A stretch of 64,000 bases of DNA from Escherichia coli (GCF_050920415.1 NZ_CP169309.1); one strand, 5' to 3'; shown: positions 50,985 through 59,695, numbered from the stretch's first letter. Made by a program: numbers and translations. Notes: a model not told the origin generated them from the letters alone.

Positions 50985-52111
<1,127 letters not shown>

Positions 52112-52205
52112 TTAATTCGTAAAACGTGCTACCGATCACATTAAGAATTCTCAGCATAGTTGAATTACAGGGAAGTAACATCGGGCGAGTGCCCAGTTCA
52201 GCACA

Positions 52206-53114
52206 CTAATTCTGCTGTAAAAAGTGCAGAAACTGACTTAAAGCATAAGAAGGCGTTTCGTTATTACGCCAAAACACACCGACGCTGCCTTTCTGTTCAA
52301 TCTTTGGCAGGTTGAGGATCACCAGTTGCCCCTGGCTGGCATAACGTTGCGCCAGGCGTAATGACAAAATAGAGATCATATTGCTGCTTTGTAACAGGTT
52401 GGTACTGACGTTCATCGACGCCGACTCAATCGTGTTTTCTGGCAGCATCACGCCGTGGTCTACCAGCGCATTATCAATGCTGATGCGGATGGGGGTACCT
52501 GTCGGCCAGACTATCCACCGCCAGTTAGCAAGATCATTCCAGCTGAGGGTGGCGTATTTCGCCAGTGGATGCTCAGGACGGGCGACAAAGCATACCGGCT
52601 CGGTGTAGAGCACGCGATAATTCAGCGGCAGCTGCAACGCGCGACCGCCAATTCGCCCAACCACCACATCGATAGAACCTGCCAACAGATCTTGCAGCAA
52701 TGGGGTCATCACCTTCTCTTCGATATTCAGGTGTAGAGTTGGCATCTCCTTGAGCAAATGCAAAATCGCCTGGGATACGCAGTCAGTGGCGACGGGAGAA
52801 CAGCCAATTTTCAGACTGCCGACCAGTCCACCTTGTTTAAAGCGAGCCAGTTCATATTGCGATCTTTCCATGTCATTGATTAACCGTTGGGCATGTTGCA
52901 ATAACAATTTGCCGCCTTCGGTCGGACGAAGCCCGTTGCTGTGCCGCTCAAAAAGTGTGAGTCCGATCTCATCTTCCAGTTGTGACAACCATTTCGAAAG
53001 CGCGGGTTGGGTGATATTCATCATCCGTGCGACATGGGTCAGATTACCCTGTTCACCCAGCGCCACCAGCATTTGCAGGTGATGTAGTTTTAGTTTTTGC
53101 GCCCAGTTCGCCAT
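52206..53114 (-). CDS. mhbR: LysR-family regulator of the gentisate/3-hydroxybenzoate cluster
   Basis: ORF 52206..53162; start at MANWAQKLKLHHLQ (ATG 53112-53114) preceded by GGAGG; divergent from the catabolic operon; symbol by analogy to Klebsiella mhb. Confidence 0.65.
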   Translation of the reverse strand: MANWAQKLKLHHLQMLVALGEQGNLTHVARMMNITQPALSKWLSQLEDEIGLTLFERHSNGLRPTEGGKLLLQHAQRLINDMERSQYELARFKQGGLVGSLKIGCSPVATDCVSQAILHLLKEMPTLHLNIEEKVMTPLLQDLLAGSIDVVVGRIGGRALQLPLNYRVLYTEPVCFVARPEHPLAKYATLSWNDLANWRWIVWPTGTPIRISIDNALVDHGVMLPENTIESASMNVSTNLLQSSNMISILSLRLAQRYASQGQLVILNLPKIEQKGSVGVFWRNNETPSYALSQFLHFLQQN

Positions 53115-53240
53115 TTGCCATAACCTCCAGGTTATCTCTCTGCCCGAAATGCCATTGTACATCTCATCTCTTTAATCACATTATCGCAACATATACAAAA
53201 CAAAAGAAACATCTACCTTACCTGCACTGAGGCATTTACT

Positions 53241-54599
53241 ATGACTCAACGACGTGATTTACAAGCACTTATCGATGCCGCTCCGGTCGGCAAGATGCAG
53301 TGGCGCGTTATCATCTGCTGTTTTCTGGTGGTAATGCTCGATGGTTTTGACACCGCGGCTATCGGCTTTATCGCCCCTGATATTCGCACTCACTGGCAAC
53401 TCACCGCAGGCGATCTCGCCCCGCTTTTTGGTGCGGGTCTGCTGGGTTTAACGGCAGGCGCACTGCTTTGTGGCCCGTTGTCTGACCGCTTTGGCCGCAA
53501 ACGGGTGATAGAGCTATGCGTCTTTTTATTTGGCGCGTTAAGTCTCGCCTCTGCGTTTTCACCAGATCTGCAAACGCTGGTATTACTGCGTTTTCTCACC
53601 GGCCTGGGGCTTGGCGGGGCGATGCCGAACACCATCACCATGACCTCGGAATATCTGCCTGCCCGTCGCCGGGGCGCGCTGGTGACGCTGATGTTTTGCG
53701 GCTTTACGCTGGGTTCGGCGTTTGGCGGGATTGTCAGCGCACAGCTGGTGCCGGTGATTGGCTGGCACGGCATTCTGGTGTTGGGGGGCGTGTTACCGCT
53801 GATGCTGTTTGTCGCACTGCTGGTAGTTCTGCCGGAATCGCCACGCTGGCAGGTGCGCCGCCAGCTACCGCAGGCGGTGATTGCGAAAACCGTCAGCGCC
53901 ATCACCCGCGAGCGTTATGTCGATACCCACTTTTATCTCATTGAATCAGCCTCCGTTACAAAAGGCAGCATTCGTCAACTGTTTATGGGACGTCAGTTAC
54001 CCATTACGTTGATGCTTTGGGTGGTGTTCTTTATGAGCCTGCTGATTATTTACCTGCTCTCAAGCTGGATGCCAACGCTGTTGAACCATCGCGGCATAGA
54101 CCTGCAACACGCGTCCTGGGTCACCGCCGCGTTCCAGATTGGCGGTACGTTGGGCGCGCTGGCGCTGGGCGTGCTGATGGATAAGTTCAATCCTTTCCGC
54201 GTGCTGGCGCTGAGCTATGCCGTAGGCGCTGTATGCATCGTGATGATTGGCTTAAGCCAGGATGGATTATGGCTGATGGCGCTGGCGATTTTCGGCACCG
54301 GCATTGGCATTAGCGGATCTCAGGTGGGGTTGAACGCGTTGACCGCAACGCTCTACCCAACGCAAAGCCGCGCCACGGGCGTGAGCTGGTCAAACGCCGT
54401 AGGCCGCTGCGGCGCGATTGTCGGCTCGCTTTCTGGCGGCCTGATGATGGCGATGAATTTCTCTTTCGACACCCTGTTTTTCATTATCGCTGTGCCCGCG
54501 GCGATCAGTGCGGTGATGTTAAGCCTGCTGATCACCGTGGTTCGCCAGTCGACCTCTGTCCCTGACTCACTGCCTCGCGCAGGCGTTGTGAACGAATAA
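53241..54599 (+). CDS. mhbT: MFS aromatic acid (3-hydroxybenzoate/gentisate) transporter
   Basis: 452 aa 12-TM MFS; first gene of operon. Confidence 0.65.
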
Positions 54600-54610
54600 G
54601 GAGCATCCTA

Positions 54611-55639
54611 ATGACTGATAACAATCAAAAAAGCCGCGAGCAATTTTATCAGCATATTTCCGGGCAAAACCTGACCCCGCTGTGGGAGTCACTGCACCAC
54701 CTGGTGCCGAAAACGCCCAACGCCAACTGTGCGCCAGCGTACTGGAATTATCAGGAGATCCGCCCGCTGCTGCTGGAGAGCGGCAGCCTGATTGGCGCGA
54801 AAGAAGCTGTGCGTCGTGTGCTGGTACTGGAAAACCCGGCGCTGCGCGGGCAGTCTTCCATTACCGCGACTTTATATGCCGGTTTGCAACTGATCATGCC
54901 GGGCGAAGTGGCACCGAGTCATCGTCATAACCAATCGGCGCTGCGTTTTATTGTTGAAGGCAAAGGGGCATTTACCGCCGTTGATGGCGAACGCACGCCA
55001 ATGAATGAGGGCGATTTTATCCTGACCCCACAATGGCGCTGGCACGATCATGGTAACCCTGGCGACGAACCGGTTATCTGGCTCGATGGACTGGATCTGC
55101 CATTAGTGAACACTCTGGGCTGCGGTTTTGCCGAAGATTACCCGGAAGAGCAACAACCGGTCACGCGTAAAGAGGGGGATTATCTGCCGCGTTATGCCGC
55201 CAATATGTTGCCGCTGCGCCATCAGACGGGGAACTCCTCACCGATCTTTAACTATCGTTATGACCGTAGCCGCGAAGTGCTGCACGATTTAACCCGCCTG
55301 GGCGATGCCGACGAGTGGGATGGCTACAAAATGCGCTACGTCAACCCGGTCACCGGCGGCTATCCGATGCCGTCGATGGGCGCTTTCCTGCAACTGCTAC
55401 CGAAAGGGTTCGCCTCCCGCGTGGCGCGTACCACTGACAGCACTATCTACCATGTGGTGGAAGGTAGCGGACAAGTCACCATCGGCAATGAAATCTTCAC
55501 CTTTAGTGCAAAAGATCTCTTTGTGGTGCCGACCTGGCACGGCGTGTCATTCCAGACTACGCAAGATACCGTTTTATTCAGTTTTTCGGACAGACCGGTA
55601 CAAGAAGCCCTGGGGCTGTTCCGCGAAGCGCGTTATTAA
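54611..55639 (+). CDS. mhbD: Gentisate 1,2-dioxygenase (bicupin)
   Basis: 342 aa; length and two-cupin layout typical of gentisate dioxygenases. Confidence 0.7.
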
Positions 55640-55654
55640 TTTGGGAGAGAGAAA

Positions 55655-56356
55655 ATGACTCAATATGTATTCGAACCACAAGCGCCCGTTACCGTACCGG
55701 TTGTTGGCAGTGATGAACAATTCCCCGTGCGCCGCGTTTACTGCGTCGGGCGTAACTATGCTGCCCACGCCCGCGAAATGGGCTTTGATCCGGATCGTGA
55801 ACCCCCCTTCTTCTTCTGCAAACCAGCAGATGCCGTTGTTCCGGTCGCCGCTGGCGAAACGCTGGCGCTGCCGTATCCGGCGCAGACCGATAACTATCAT
55901 TACGAAATTGAACTGGTGGTGGCGATTGGTAAAAAGGGCAGCGATATCCCACTGGAAAAGGCCCATGAATATGTCTGGGGTTATGCCACAGGCCTTGATA
56001 TGACTCGCCGTGACCGTCAAATGGAAATGCGTCAGATGGGCCGCCCGTGGGAAATCGGCAAAGCATTTGATCTCTCGGCCCCCATCGCACCGCTGCACAA
56101 AGCCAGCGAAACTGGCGGTATTGATAACGCACCTATCTGGTTACAGGTTAACGGTGAAGATCACCAGCGCAGCGATATTCGCCATCTCATCTGGTCGGTG
56201 AATGAAACCATCAGCTACCTGTCAGGCTTCTTTGAACTGCAACCGGGCGATCTAATCTTTACCGGTACGCCGGAAGGGGTTGGCCCAGTAGTCAAAGGTG
56301 ATGTGATCACGGGCAACGTCGAGGGCTTAACCCCTATCGCGGTGAAGATCGTCTGA
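55655..56356 (+). CDS. mhbH: Fumarylpyruvate hydrolase (FAH family)
   Basis: 233 aa FAH-fold size; position after the dioxygenase. Confidence 0.65.
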
Positions 56357-56361
56357 GGTGC

Positions 56362-57009
56362 ATGATGAAGCTGTACAGTTTTTTTAATAGTTCAGCATCG
56401 TACCGGGTACGCATTGCGCTGGCGCTGAAAGGCATTAATTACCAGACCGAAGGGGTGAATATCCGTATTGGTCGGCAAAATGAACTGGCCTATCGGCGGA
56501 TGAATCCTGTCGGGCTGGTGCCGACGCTGCTGACTGACGAGGGCGAGTCACTCGGTCAGTCGCTGGCGATTATTGACTGGCTGGATCGTCACTACCCGCA
56601 AGTTCCGCTGGTGCCGCAGGAAGAACCGGCCCGCAATAAGGTGCTGGGAATTGTCTATGCCATCGCTTGTGATATTCATCCATTGAATAACCTGCGCGTG
56701 CTGCGCTATCTGACCGAAGAGCTGAACGTCAGTGAAGAAGAGAAAAAACGCTGGTATGCGCACTGGATCCAGCAAGGGTTAAGCGCGGTGGAACAGCTAC
56801 TGCGCCAGAGCCAGTCGGGGCAATTTTGTGTGGGTGAGACGCCGACGCTGGCAGACTGCTGCCTTGTTCCGCAGTGGGCGAACGCGCTACGTATGAACTG
56901 CGATCTGAGAGGATATCCGCGCTGCAAAGCGGTGTACGACGCCTGCACACAACTGCCAGCGTTCATTGCCGCAGCGCCAGAAAATCAACAAGATAAAATT
57001 TCAGCCTGA
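56362..57009 (+). CDS. mhbI: Maleylpyruvate isomerase (GST zeta-like)
   Basis: 215 aa GST-like ORF; adjacent ATG at 56365. Confidence 0.65.
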   Translation: MMKLYSFFNSSASYRVRIALALKGINYQTEGVNIRIGRQNELAYRRMNPVGLVPTLLTDEGESLGQSLAIIDWLDRHYPQVPLVPQEEPARNKVLGIVYAIACDIHPLNNLRVLRYLTEELNVSEEEKKRWYAHWIQQGLSAVEQLLRQSQSGQFCVGETPTLADCCLVPQWANALRMNCDLRGYPRCKAVYDACTQLPAFIAAAPENQQDKISA

Positions 57010-57023
57010 CCAGGAGAACCATA

Positions 57024-58217
57024 ATGACTAAAGTGACACGCGCAGTAATTGTGGGAGGCGGGATCGGCGGTGCGGCAACTGCGCTGTCACTGGCCCGCCA
57101 GGGGATCAAAGTGGTGCTGCTGGAAAAGGCGCATGAGATCGGTGAGATTGGCGCAGGTATCCAGTTGGGGCCAAATGCGTTTTCGGCGTTGGATAGTCTT
57201 GGTGTTGGCGAAATCGCCCGCCAACGTGCGGTATTCACCGATCACATCACCATGATGGACGCGGTGAACGCCGAAGAAGTGGTGCGTATTGAAACCGGGC
57301 AGGCCTTTCGTGACCATTTCGGCGGCCCTTACGCGGTGATCCACCGCGTTGATATTCATGCCTCGGTGTGGGAAGCGGTACTGACGCATCCGGACGTGGA
57401 ATATCACACCTCCACCAACGTCGTGGATATTCGCGAGACGGAAGACGATGTCACCGTGTTTGACGATCGCGGCAATAGCTGGAGCGGCGATATTCTGATT
57501 GGCTGTGACGGTGTGAAATCAGTGGTGCGCCAGAGCTTATTGGGCGATGCGCCGCGTGTCACCGGACATGTGGTCTACCGTGCGGTTATCGATTGTGCCG
57601 ATATGCCGGAAGATTTGCGCATTAACGCACCGGTACTGTGGGCGGGGCCGCATTGTCACCTGGTGCATTACCCTTTGCGCGGCGGCAAGCAGTATAACCT
57701 GGTGGTAACATTCCACAGCCGCCAGCAGGAAGAGTGGGGCGTGAAGGATGGCAGTAAAGAGGAAGTGCTCTCTTACTTTGAAGGGATTCACCCCCGTCCG
57801 CGCCAGATGTTGGATAAACCGACTTCATGGCGACGCTGGTCAACCGCTGACCGTGAACCGGTGGCGAAGTGGGGAACGAAGCGCATAACGCTTGTGGGCG
57901 ATGCGGCCCATCCGGTGGCGCAATATATGGCGCAGGGAGCCTGTATGGCGCTGGAAGATGCAGTAACGCTGGGTAAGGCGCTGGCGCAGTGTGAGGGTGA
58001 TGCGGCGCAAGCCTTTGCGCTGTATGAGTCGGTACGAATTCCGCGCACCGCGCGCATCGTCTGGTCGACCCGTGAAATGGGGCGGGTTTATCACGCCGCA
58101 GGGGTAGAACGTCAGGTACGTAACCTGCTGTGGAAAGGGAAATCGCAGGCAGAGTTTTATCGCGGCATGGAGTGGCTGTACGGCTGGAAAGAAGATAACT
58201 GTTTGCAACCACGCTGA
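57024..58217 (+). CDS. mhbM: 3-hydroxybenzoate 6-hydroxylase (FAD monooxygenase)
   Basis: 397 aa; FAD fingerprint VGGGIGGAATAL; GDAAH motif. Confidence 0.7.
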   Translation: MTKVTRAVIVGGGIGGAATALSLARQGIKVVLLEKAHEIGEIGAGIQLGPNAFSALDSLGVGEIARQRAVFTDHITMMDAVNAEEVVRIETGQAFRDHFGGPYAVIHRVDIHASVWEAVLTHPDVEYHTSTNVVDIRETEDDVTVFDDRGNSWSGDILIGCDGVKSVVRQSLLGDAPRVTGHVVYRAVIDCADMPEDLRINAPVLWAGPHCHLVHYPLRGGKQYNLVVTFHSRQQEEWGVKDGSKEEVLSYFEGIHPRPRQMLDKPTSWRRWSTADREPVAKWGTKRITLVGDAAHPVAQYMAQGACMALEDAVTLGKALAQCEGDAAQAFALYESVRIPRTARIVWSTREMGRVYHAAGVERQVRNLLWKGKSQAEFYRGMEWLYGWKEDNCLQPR

Positions 58218-58375
58218 GCACTTCTTCACCCAATCAGGCGCACGGGCGGTCCCCTCGCCCCTTCGGGAGAGGGTTAGGGTGAGGGAAAAATCTTGCCCGA
58301 ATTAATCAGTAAGTCAGTTTGTCTGCAAACACCAGAGGCGCTAACATAGCGCCTCATTTTTTTGCGGGTGATGAT

Positions 58376-59323
58376 ATGCGTGTGTTACTGGCGCCGATGG
58401 AGGGTGTACTCGACTCTCTGGTGCGTGAATTGCTGACCGAAGTTAACGACTACGATCTGTGCATCACCGAGTTTGTCCGCGTGGTGGATCAACTGCTGCC
58501 GGTAAAAGTTTTTCATCGCATTTGCCCGGAGCTACAAAACGCCAGCCGAACGCCATCCGGTACGCTGGTGCGCGTGCAATTGCTGGGTCAGTTCCCACAA
58601 TGGCTGGCAGAGAACGCCGCCCGTGCGGTGGAGTTAGGTTCCTGGGGTGTGGATCTTAATTGCGGCTGTCCGTCGAAAACGGTTAACGGTAGCGGCGGCG
58701 GGGCGACACTACTCAAAGATCCTGAACTCATCTACCAGGGTGCAAAAGCGATGCGTGAAGCTGTACCGGCGCATTTGCCCGTCAGTGTGAAAGTGCGTCT
58801 GGGCTGGGACAGCGGTGAGAAGAAATTTGAAATCGCCGATGCGGTTCAACAGGCTGGCGCTACGGAGTTGGTGGTGCATGGGCGGACAAAAGAGCAGGGG
58901 TACCGCGCGGAGCATATTGACTGGCAGGCGATTGGCGAGATTCGCCAACGGCTGAATATTCCGGTGATTGCCAACGGTGAAATCTGGGACTGGCAGAGCG
59001 CGCAACAGTGTATGGCGATCAGCGGCTGTGACGCGGTGATGATTGGTCGCGGAGCGCTCAATATTCCCAATCTGAGCCGAGTGGTAAAATATAACGAACC
59101 GCGAATGCCGTGGCCGGAGGTGGTTGCTTTGCTACAAAAATATACCCGTCTGGAAAAGCAGGGCGATACCGGGTTATATCACGTTGCGCGGATTAAACAG
59201 TGGTTGAGTTATTTGCGTAAAGAATACGATGAAGCAACAGAATTATTTCAGCATGTTCGGGTGTTGAATAATTCCCCTGATATTGCAAGGGCTATTCAGA
59301 CCATTGATATCGAGAAACTCTAA
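58376..59323 (+). CDS. dusC: tRNA-dihydrouridine synthase C
   Basis: 315 aa from [16 protein letters not shown] track start 58319 is an extension. Confidence 0.9.
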
Positions 59324-59695
59324 GAAACCATAGTGATGTTTTTTGACAATGTGTTAGCTCTTTATCAATAGGCCGCACGGTTGTTTGGTGGCGTCAAAAT
59401 CGCCGAGGCGTTCCCTGAAGGCCGGGGCAGCCCACATGGATGTGGGCTGAGGGCGCGTTTTACAGGGATGTTACCTCGCGCCCGACCCGGTAGCCGTAAG
59501 GGATAAGCCGAGGGCACCGCGCAGCGGCGATTTTGTTCGCCAGAGCCCGGGGGTGCAGGGGGCGGCGGCGACTGGTCGCCCCCTGCGCGCTCCTTGCGCT
59601 AGTGATTATATGAAGCAATGTACATGACAGGAGCGCAACAGGATGAGAGACTGAAATATTCTCGTTATTTTCGGATCTGATGACGTTAATTAATT

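Follow-up and report, generated by a model that had tools for sequence, protein, structure and literature searches.

The closest described system to the one considered here is the mhbRTDHIM cluster of 'Klebsiella pneumoniae' M5a1, whose gene order is given in PMC3572157 and PMC5343071 (citing Jones & Cooper 1990; Lin et al. 2010; Xu et al. 2012). As related at second hand in PMC3572157 (from Jones & Cooper 1990 and Robson et al. 1996), 3-hydroxybenzoate is a growth substrate for M5a1 by virtue of this cluster, and K-12 can grow on the compound once given Klebsiella DNA. The chemistry of the gentisate route for 3-hydroxybenzoate is summarised in the same paper, where MhbR of M5a1 is described as a LysR-type activator of mhbTDHI (PMC3572157). 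Here, we analyse the corresponding locus in a stretch of 64,000 nucleotides from Escherichia coli (NZ_CP169309.1; the whole stretch is called the window below), in which six genes lie between yohJ and dusC. Very probably, these genes constitute an intact chromosomal mhbRTDHIM operon that is ancestral at this site and was lost once in most E. coli, including K-12.

The window has the same six genes as M5a1, in the same order and orientation, with the LysR-type regulator gene divergent from mhbT and followed by T, D, H, I, and M. An earlier note on this DNA, made from the sequence alone, had recognised this order, and it matches the published M5a1 cluster. The lengths of MhbD, MhbH, MhbI, and MhbM are 342, 233, 214, and 397 residues in the window, compared to 345, 232, 214, and 397 in M5a1. 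All six open reading frames (ORFs) are full-length and non-overlapping, and the gene content and functional families proposed in the earlier note are confirmed by the ORFs, by the NCBI Prokaryotic Genome Annotation Pipeline (PGAP), and by NCBIfam. For the locus of E. coli MFDS1022581, which is 99.9% identical, the PGAP coordinates agree with ours, and the names given there include mhbT, gtdA, maiA, and 3-hydroxybenzoate 6-monooxygenase. The orthologues of K. michiganensis are 83% to 91% identical to the window at the amino-acid level and have the same yohJ and dusC flanks. At the nucleotide level, Klebsiella loci (K. michiganensis, K. grimontii, and K. aerogenes) are approximately 79% identical to the window, equal to the value for the flanking core genes and normal for a comparison between genera. 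We take 'K. pneumoniae M5a1' to belong to the K. oxytoca/michiganensis group, which fits the identity of the Klebsiella matches, i.e., K. michiganensis, K. grimontii, K. spallanzanii, and K. aerogenes.

Three of the enzymes are identified directly at the level of NCBIfam equivalogs, all of gentisate-pathway families and with the same gene context in relatives: MhbD (TIGR02272, 599.7 bits versus a cut-off of 442.1), MhbI (TIGR01262, the maiA family, 305.6 versus 171), and MhbM (NF006021, 759.7 versus 459). MhbD differs from the E. coli O157:H7 gentisate 1,2-dioxygenase (PDB 2D40; 786 bits) at only 8 of 342 residues (approximately 98% identity) and retains all three iron ligands, His104, His106, and His145. 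The three-histidine coordination of iron in gentisate dioxygenase is described in PMC4585797, which refers to Adams et al. 2006 for the activity of the O157 enzyme. For MhbM, the best solved relative is the 3-hydroxybenzoate 6-hydroxylase of Rhodococcus jostii (4BJY/4BJZ). The GGGIGG, DG, and GD motifs for flavin adenine dinucleotide (FAD) are kept, as is Arg169; hydroxylation at C6 is the predicted regiospecificity. MhbI has the N-terminal motif SSASYRVRIAL and relatives among the solved structures that are named 'maleylpyruvate isomerase' (6JWK, 2V6K/2JL4); it is assigned as a putative maleylpyruvate isomerase, with maleylpyruvate rather than maleylacetoacetate as its presumed substrate.

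The remaining three proteins are less sharply defined. MhbH scores above the cut-off of no NCBIfam model; among solved structures it is closest to 6J5Y (381 bits) and to 4MAQ, a 'putative fumarylpyruvate hydrolase' (250 bits), and its probable role is taken from its family, its position, and the M5a1 cluster. MhbT reaches 378.5 bits with the AAHS model TIGR00895 (cut-off 418.55) and 425 bits with PcaK, also under the cut-off. An identical protein is named MhbT by PGAP, identity to the K. michiganensis orthologue is 86%, and both motifs reported for the family (PMC5566891) are present, DGXD in the first transmembrane segment and the loop GxxxD(R/K)xGR(R/K). The best NCBIfam match of MhbR is PcaQ (TIGR02424, 186 bits), but since the score is under the cut-off, we regard MhbR as PcaQ-like and not as PcaQ. 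The protein is identical to WP_000024645.1; the raw ORF reaches 53162, and the annotated start is MANWAQ. Because the scores are under curated cut-offs, the roles of MhbT, MhbH, and MhbR are assigned from family, motifs, position, and orthology. Judged from sequence, by gene order, orthology, and three equivalog-level enzymes, the locus is an mhbRTDHIM operon, and the corresponding enzyme activities would be expected in the strain from which the window derives.

How did these genes come to lie between yohJ and dusC? The earlier note had regarded them as an inserted island, and it is on this point that it needs to be corrected. As stated there, yohJ and dusC are neighbours in K-12, with a spacer of 238 bp in the K-12 derivative compared. 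Relatives were scanned with MhbM, using one genome per species, and the loci obtained were screened with all 13 local proteins. The mhbRTDHIM order was found in at least 25 enterobacterial loci. The arrangement sanA-cdd-yohK-yohJ-mhbRTDHIM-dusC(-mdtQ) was observed directly in E. albertii and the divergent 'E. coli' strain E69, in Citrobacter werkmanii, C. braakii, and C. amalonaticus, in Salmonella diarizonae (of which the right side was seen), in K. michiganensis, K. grimontii, and K. spallanzanii, and in Raoultella, Pseudocitrobacter, Pluralibacter, Kluyvera, Pseudenterobacter, Shimwellia, and others. Salmonella enterica Infantis and K. aerogenes add the same arrangement, and the exact site is common to more than 15 enterobacterial genera.

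The sequences of the operon have, moreover, diverged in step with their surroundings. When 24 genomes are compared in pairs, divergence in the concatenated cluster (5.8 kb) closely follows that in five flank genes (3.6 kb), with r = 0.967 and a slope of 0.90; none of 2000 Mantel permutations gave a correlation as high. The ratios of cluster to flank divergence between genera are 0.90 to 1.04, and gene by gene, the nucleotide identity of the mhb genes follows that of the flanks in every comparison. The nearest alleles outside E. coli proper are those of E69 (91.5%) and E. albertii (89.7%), i.e., Escherichia and not Klebsiella, and recent import from Klebsiella was discarded on these grounds.

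The base composition of the operon had been given as a further mark of the island. The GC-richness itself is real (55.0% versus 49.9% in the rest of the window), and no other 6.2-kb stretch is as rich in GC as the operon, which ranks within the top 2.6% of sliding windows. However, compared to neighbouring coding sequence the excess is only approximately 3 points (55.5% versus 52.4%), with GC at third codon positions (GC3) of 0.62 versus 0.57. In the relatives, GC3 of the cluster varies with the host between 0.59 (E. albertii) and 0.79 (Raoultella) and is usually accompanied by an overall GC content 1 to 3 points above that of the flank genes. Since the difference to the neighbours is small and is seen in most genera examined, the GC-richness cannot be taken as a sign of recent import. 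The absence of mobility genes, on which the earlier note had remarked, is borne out: there are no integrase or transposase genes in or beside the block, no tRNA genes at the locus, and only short chance matches among att-like direct or inverted repeats bracketing the junctions. Thus, the features that mark a genomic island, i.e., a site that is empty in relatives, divergence incongruent with the flanks, and mobility features or repeats, were not found. The same site in more than 15 genera, the divergence in step with the flanks, and the host-like composition together indicate that it is the K-12 state that is derived.

The distribution within E. coli was determined directly in 5,426 complete genomes, a set in which O157:H7 and O55:H7 are heavily sampled, so that they dominate an evenly spaced sample of the matches. 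At least 80% of the block is present in 611 genomes, and the cluster is absent from approximately 89%, in line with the strain-variable trait proposed earlier. The cluster is at the native yohJ junction in 504 genomes. K-12 has 121 nt in place of the window segment, approximately 103 of which have no match in alleles with the cluster, and this 103-nt filler is present (at least 80% coverage) in 4,918 genomes, as a single copy with 95% to 100% identity. As 504 and 4,918 add up to 5,422 of 5,426 genomes, there are essentially two alleles at the locus, the empty one with a single origin; the locus should therefore serve as a simple typing marker, a use that the earlier note had foreseen. The shared filler suggests one ancient event, either a deletion or a replacement. 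It is not a repeat element, as it has a median of one place per genome, and a likeness to the 3' end of mhbM in a MAFFT alignment was not significant. A literature search on E. coli phylogroups and gentisate found nothing relevant.

Several observations weigh against an ancestral operon with a single loss. First, no mhb remnant was detected in the K-12 filler by local alignment to the whole cluster and both of its ends, on both strands and with 200 shuffles; the alignment scores are at or below the shuffle means. As the filler has no detectable mhb similarity, the polarity of the deletion comes from comparison and not from a scar. Second, the K-12 gap neatly brackets the operon, from approximately 56 nt past the mhbR stop to approximately 3 nt past the mhbM stop, which, taken alone, is cassette-like. 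Third, when E. coli strains are compared with one another, divergence in the cluster is 1.3- to 2.6-fold that in the flanks, and the cluster is, as described, somewhat GC-richer than its neighbours. Fourth, in Pluralibacter gergoviae (locus L020, 5188-11191), a cluster with a GC3 of 0.61 lies in flanks of 0.81; it is nearest to Pseudocitrobacter (d = 0.12-0.135), while the flanks are nearest to Raoultella and Klebsiella (d approximately 0.19-0.20), as if a foreign allele had replaced the operon in situ. Finally, with regard to function, MhbT, MhbH, and MhbR stay under the cut-offs of every specific NCBIfam model. Still, the operon would be best described as an ancestral Enterobacteriaceae feature of the yohJ-dusC interval, passed on by vertical inheritance and ordinary homologous recombination, and lost from most E. 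coli in one old deletion or replacement event.

The lineage of the window may have kept the operon, or it may have regained it from another E. coli through recombination in the flanks. The latter possibility, in which an ancestor with the empty allele took up the operon from E. coli or another Escherichia via homology in yohJ and dusC, is the best of the alternatives, although we consider it unlikely. Identity of at least 99% over the block was found for one complete genome only, that of strain MFDS1022581 (Korea); the next best is 97.3%, and most are approximately 95%. In this stretch, E. coli strains differ by 3% to 5%, and identity is patchy. In a sliding comparison of 400 nt, the window is 99% to 100% identical to strain 2017-02-2CC across the flanks and the greater part of the operon, with divergent patches, while within mhbM (57261-57861) it is instead 97.5% to 99.5% identical to the O157 allele. 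This mosaic identity is ordinary homologous recombination among E. coli alleles, and both the patchiness and the rarity of the allele would suit regain, as would the apparent cross-genus replacement in Pluralibacter. On the other hand, in their flanks, strains that carry the cluster are not more similar to one another than they are to K-12, and the same 400-nt scan has no recombination breakpoint at the junctions. Continuous retention followed by recombination would fit the data equally well.

A second alternative concerns the use of the operon rather than its origin. The genes could be intact but serve to degrade gentisate or salicylate-derived plant phenolics in the gut or rumen, or to detoxify such compounds instead of supplying carbon. 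Gentisate dioxygenase protein has been found in O157 from bovine rumen (PMC9135228), and the substrate range cannot be read from the sequence. Moreover, approximately 100 further carriers in the census hold the operon off the native site. Some of these copies are on islands with IS66, ISEc60, or integrase genes beside efa1/lifA or gsp (e.g., E. coli 99-3311 and WP5-S17-ESBL-10), and others are on large virulence plasmids rich in insertion sequences (IS) that carry STa and ehx (enterohaemolysin), e.g., pOkiPb01701_1, where the operon is flanked by IS91, IS3, and IS1414. The presence of extra copies on virulence plasmids of Shiga toxin-producing and enterotoxigenic E. coli (STEC and ETEC) and beside efa1 would be in keeping with another use. 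These mobile copies are 94% to 95% identical to the window and 95% to 97.5% to the native O157 allele, so their origin is in Escherichia. However, MhbM is far above the cut-off of the 3-hydroxybenzoate 6-monooxygenase equivalog, and, by the second-hand account in PMC3572157, growth on 3-hydroxybenzoate is what the orthologous cluster confers in M5a1 and what K-12 gains from Klebsiella DNA. We therefore regard a use other than 3-hydroxybenzoate catabolism as improbable, and it would in any case complement an ancestral mhbRTDHIM operon and not exclude it.

The weakest account, insertion of the six genes into an empty yohJ-dusC spacer of this lineage from a GC-rich donor such as Klebsiella, can draw on the absence of the cluster from most complete E. 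coli genomes, a GC content of 55% against a background of 50%, the neat boundaries, and the fact that the same cluster is mobile within E. coli, on IS/integrase islands and plasmids, but we hold it to be very improbable given the occupied site in so many genera, equal divergence of cluster and flanks in every inter-genus comparison, nearest alleles in Escherichia, GC3 ameliorated to each host, the lack of att-like repeats, tRNA, and integrase at the locus, and the one filler common to all empty genomes.

If the assignments for the ancestral mhbRTDHIM operon hold, 3-hydroxybenzoate would be imported by MhbT via proton symport and hydroxylated at C6 by MhbM, with FAD, NAD(P)H, and O2, to give gentisate. 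MhbD, with Fe2+ on its three histidines, would then cleave the ring of gentisate to yield maleylpyruvate, which MhbI would convert to fumarylpyruvate with the help of glutathione; hydrolysis by MhbH would release fumarate and pyruvate. The positions of the genes and of the putative regulatory signals are collected in Table 1. The block had been placed at 52112-58320 in the earlier note, which is essentially the segment without K-12 counterpart listed there.

Table 1. Features of the yohJ-dusC interval and its surroundings in the window.
Feature	Position	Strand	Remark
yohJ	51677-52075	-	left flank gene
Segment without K-12 counterpart, 6,183 bp	52148-58330		junctions mapped against the K-12 spacer
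mhbR, LysR-type regulator, 302 aa	52206-53114	-	divergent from mhbT
Perfect palindrome ATAACC-TCCA-GGTTAT	53120-53135		5 nt upstream of mhbR start codon; proposed MhbR site
Conserved block GCCATTGTACA	53151-53161	+	holds candidate -35 and activation site of the mhbT promoter
Candidate mhbT -35, TTGTAC (weak)	53155-53160		
Candidate mhbT -10, CATTAT	53179-53184		
mhbT, aromatic acid/H+ symporter (major facilitator superfamily), 452 aa	53241-54599	+	
mhbD/gtdA, gentisate 1,2-dioxygenase (bicupin), 342 aa	54611-55639	+	
mhbH, FAH-family fumarylpyruvate hydrolase (putative), 233 aa	55655-56356	+	
mhbI/maiA, glutathione-dependent maleylpyruvate isomerase (zeta-class GST; putative), 214 aa	56365-57009	+	
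mhbM, FAD-dependent 3-hydroxybenzoate 6-monooxygenase (predicted), 397 aa	57024-58217	+	
Segment between mhbM stop and terminator, approximately 100 nt	58222-58330		
GC-rich palindromic dispersed repeat	58236-58291		inside the preceding segment
Terminator-like hairpin GAGGCGCTAACATAGCGCCTC and T-run	58335-58363	+	13 nt upstream of dusC start
dusC	58376-59323	+	right flank gene
GC-rich segment with inversion polymorphism, approximately 270 bp	~59385-59655		between dusC and yohP
mdtQ	60003-61376		nonsense codon
Rfam Peptidase-S11 RNA motif	63806-63886		upstream of pbpG

Control of the operon would involve the spacer between mhbR and mhbT. The palindrome next to mhbR is nearly invariant in an alignment of this spacer from 18 taxa, including Serratia, Leminorella, and Xenorhabdus. 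The PcaQ box is ATAACC-N4-GGTTAT (PMC3557286), and since the mhb palindrome has this form and MhbR is PcaQ-like, we propose that the palindrome is the MhbR operator. Its centre is approximately 64 nt upstream of the implied mhbT start near 53191, compared to -65.5 for the centre of the PcaQ site (PMC5002191). The GCCATTGTACA block is conserved across genera in the same alignment, and the candidate mhbT promoter is put forward on the basis of this conservation and the spacing. A scan for consensus sigma-70 promoters returned fewer promoter-like sites than in shuffles, and none in the mhbR-mhbT spacer. MhbR bound to the palindrome would probably switch on the mhbT promoter, with its weak -35, when substrate is present. 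At the other end, the hairpin was found by a terminator scan and is kept in all genera examined and in K-12; it is the likely terminator of mhbTDHIM, and would probably end the transcript just before dusC.

The segment between the mhbM stop and this hairpin contains a dispersed repeat that includes CCCTCGCCCCTTCGGGAGAGGGTTAGGGTGAGGG; the median number of its places in an E. coli genome is 16. The segment is carried only by the window and O157-type alleles and is missing in the alleles of avian pathogenic E. coli (APEC) O2-211, E. albertii, E69, and Citrobacter; it is a secondary insertion, outside the ancestral operon. The repeat resembles the BoxC family, of which it may be a member.

Further to the right, mdtQ has a nonsense mutation (CAG to TAG) at codon 458, which leaves it 21 residues short of the 478-residue O157:H7 version, and PGAP calls mdtQ a pseudogene in the strain with the identical locus. 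The GC-rich segment between dusC and yohP is collinear with K-12, but in O157:H7 and APEC O2-211 it has the opposite orientation (87.5% identity on the other strand), a small inversion polymorphism. The Peptidase-S11 motif scores 72.8 bits, compared to a gathering score of 34.8.

Some of the loci retrieved from other organisms deserve separate mention. Two Serratia marcescens loci have the six genes in the same order with 79% to 82% nucleotide identity to the window, but without the yohJ and dusC flanks; such closeness is unexpected between families, which suggests that the genes came from Enterobacteriaceae by transfer. Two records labelled as plasmids, of Salmonella Infantis (NZ_CP148876.1, 499 kb) and K. 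aerogenes (LR134127.1, 278 kb), contain sanA-cdd-yohKJ-mhb-dusC-mdtQ; in the latter, mhbT, mhbM, and dusC are each split into two ORFs. Both were considered as evidence of mobility and rejected, as the records are evidently chromosomal fragments. A contig of a metagenome-assembled genome of 'Collinsella sp.' (JAIJJM010000061.1) has mhbR, mhbT, and mhbM that are 94% to 95% identical to E. coli at the nucleotide level and lacks mhbH and mhbI; most likely, it is misbinned or chimeric E. coli.

With the polarity corrected, K-12 and approximately 90% of E. coli would carry a single ancient deletion allele, and what had appeared as an island would be the ancestral state, found also in Salmonella, Citrobacter, and Klebsiella. 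Why both states persist is a matter for speculation. We consider it a rather doubtful possibility that the presence and absence of mhb form an ancient polymorphism kept by niche-dependent selection on plant phenolics in the guts of ruminants and other herbivores. Compatible with this are the native alleles, which are deeply diverged (approximately 5%) and mosaic, the independent capture of the operon on STEC/ETEC plasmids and on islands adjacent to efa1 or gsp, and the dioxygenase in rumen-grown O157 (PMC9135228). If true, catabolism via the gentisate pathway would be a colonisation fitness factor and not a neutral relic. The secondary copies on virulence plasmids and islands hint that the trait may be under selection in cattle-associated E. 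coli.

Within E. coli, the nearest known counterpart is the gentisate cluster of O157:H7, which has the same site, gene set, and iron ligands; the extra repeat after mhbM is common to both. Over 6.2 kb, the O157 allele is 95.4% identical to the window, which is O157-like only in the mhbM segment. The pathway has been known since 1990, and the structure of the O157:H7 gentisate 1,2-dioxygenase (2D40) was reportedly described by Adams et al. in 2006. The metabolic models of enterohaemorrhagic E. coli already list the reaction (PMC3229490), and the GtdA protein was detected in O157 grown in bovine rumen (PMC9135228). The pathway, the genes, and the O157:H7 enzyme structure are thus already published and the NCBI pipeline names the genes, so that the locus will be of use mainly as a strain marker. 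The mobile E. coli copies have the same six genes as the window, but with IS elements on their flanks instead of yohJ and dusC, whereas the window copy is at the native site and lacks mobility genes. More distant are the nag/sgp-type clusters of Burkholderiales (e.g., Ralstonia U2 NagIKL and Burkholderia xenovorans mhbRTDHI), which have the same chemistry, with a gentisate 1,2-dioxygenase, a GST-type isomerase, and an FAH hydrolase. In B. xenovorans LB400, however, the gene order is different, the regulator is of the MarR type, and mhbM is located elsewhere. Identity to the M5a1 proteins is only 38% to 64% (PMC3572157). The Achromobacter and Bordetella loci, with 54% to 72% identity, likewise have other arrangements, in contrast to the order that the window has in common with M5a1.

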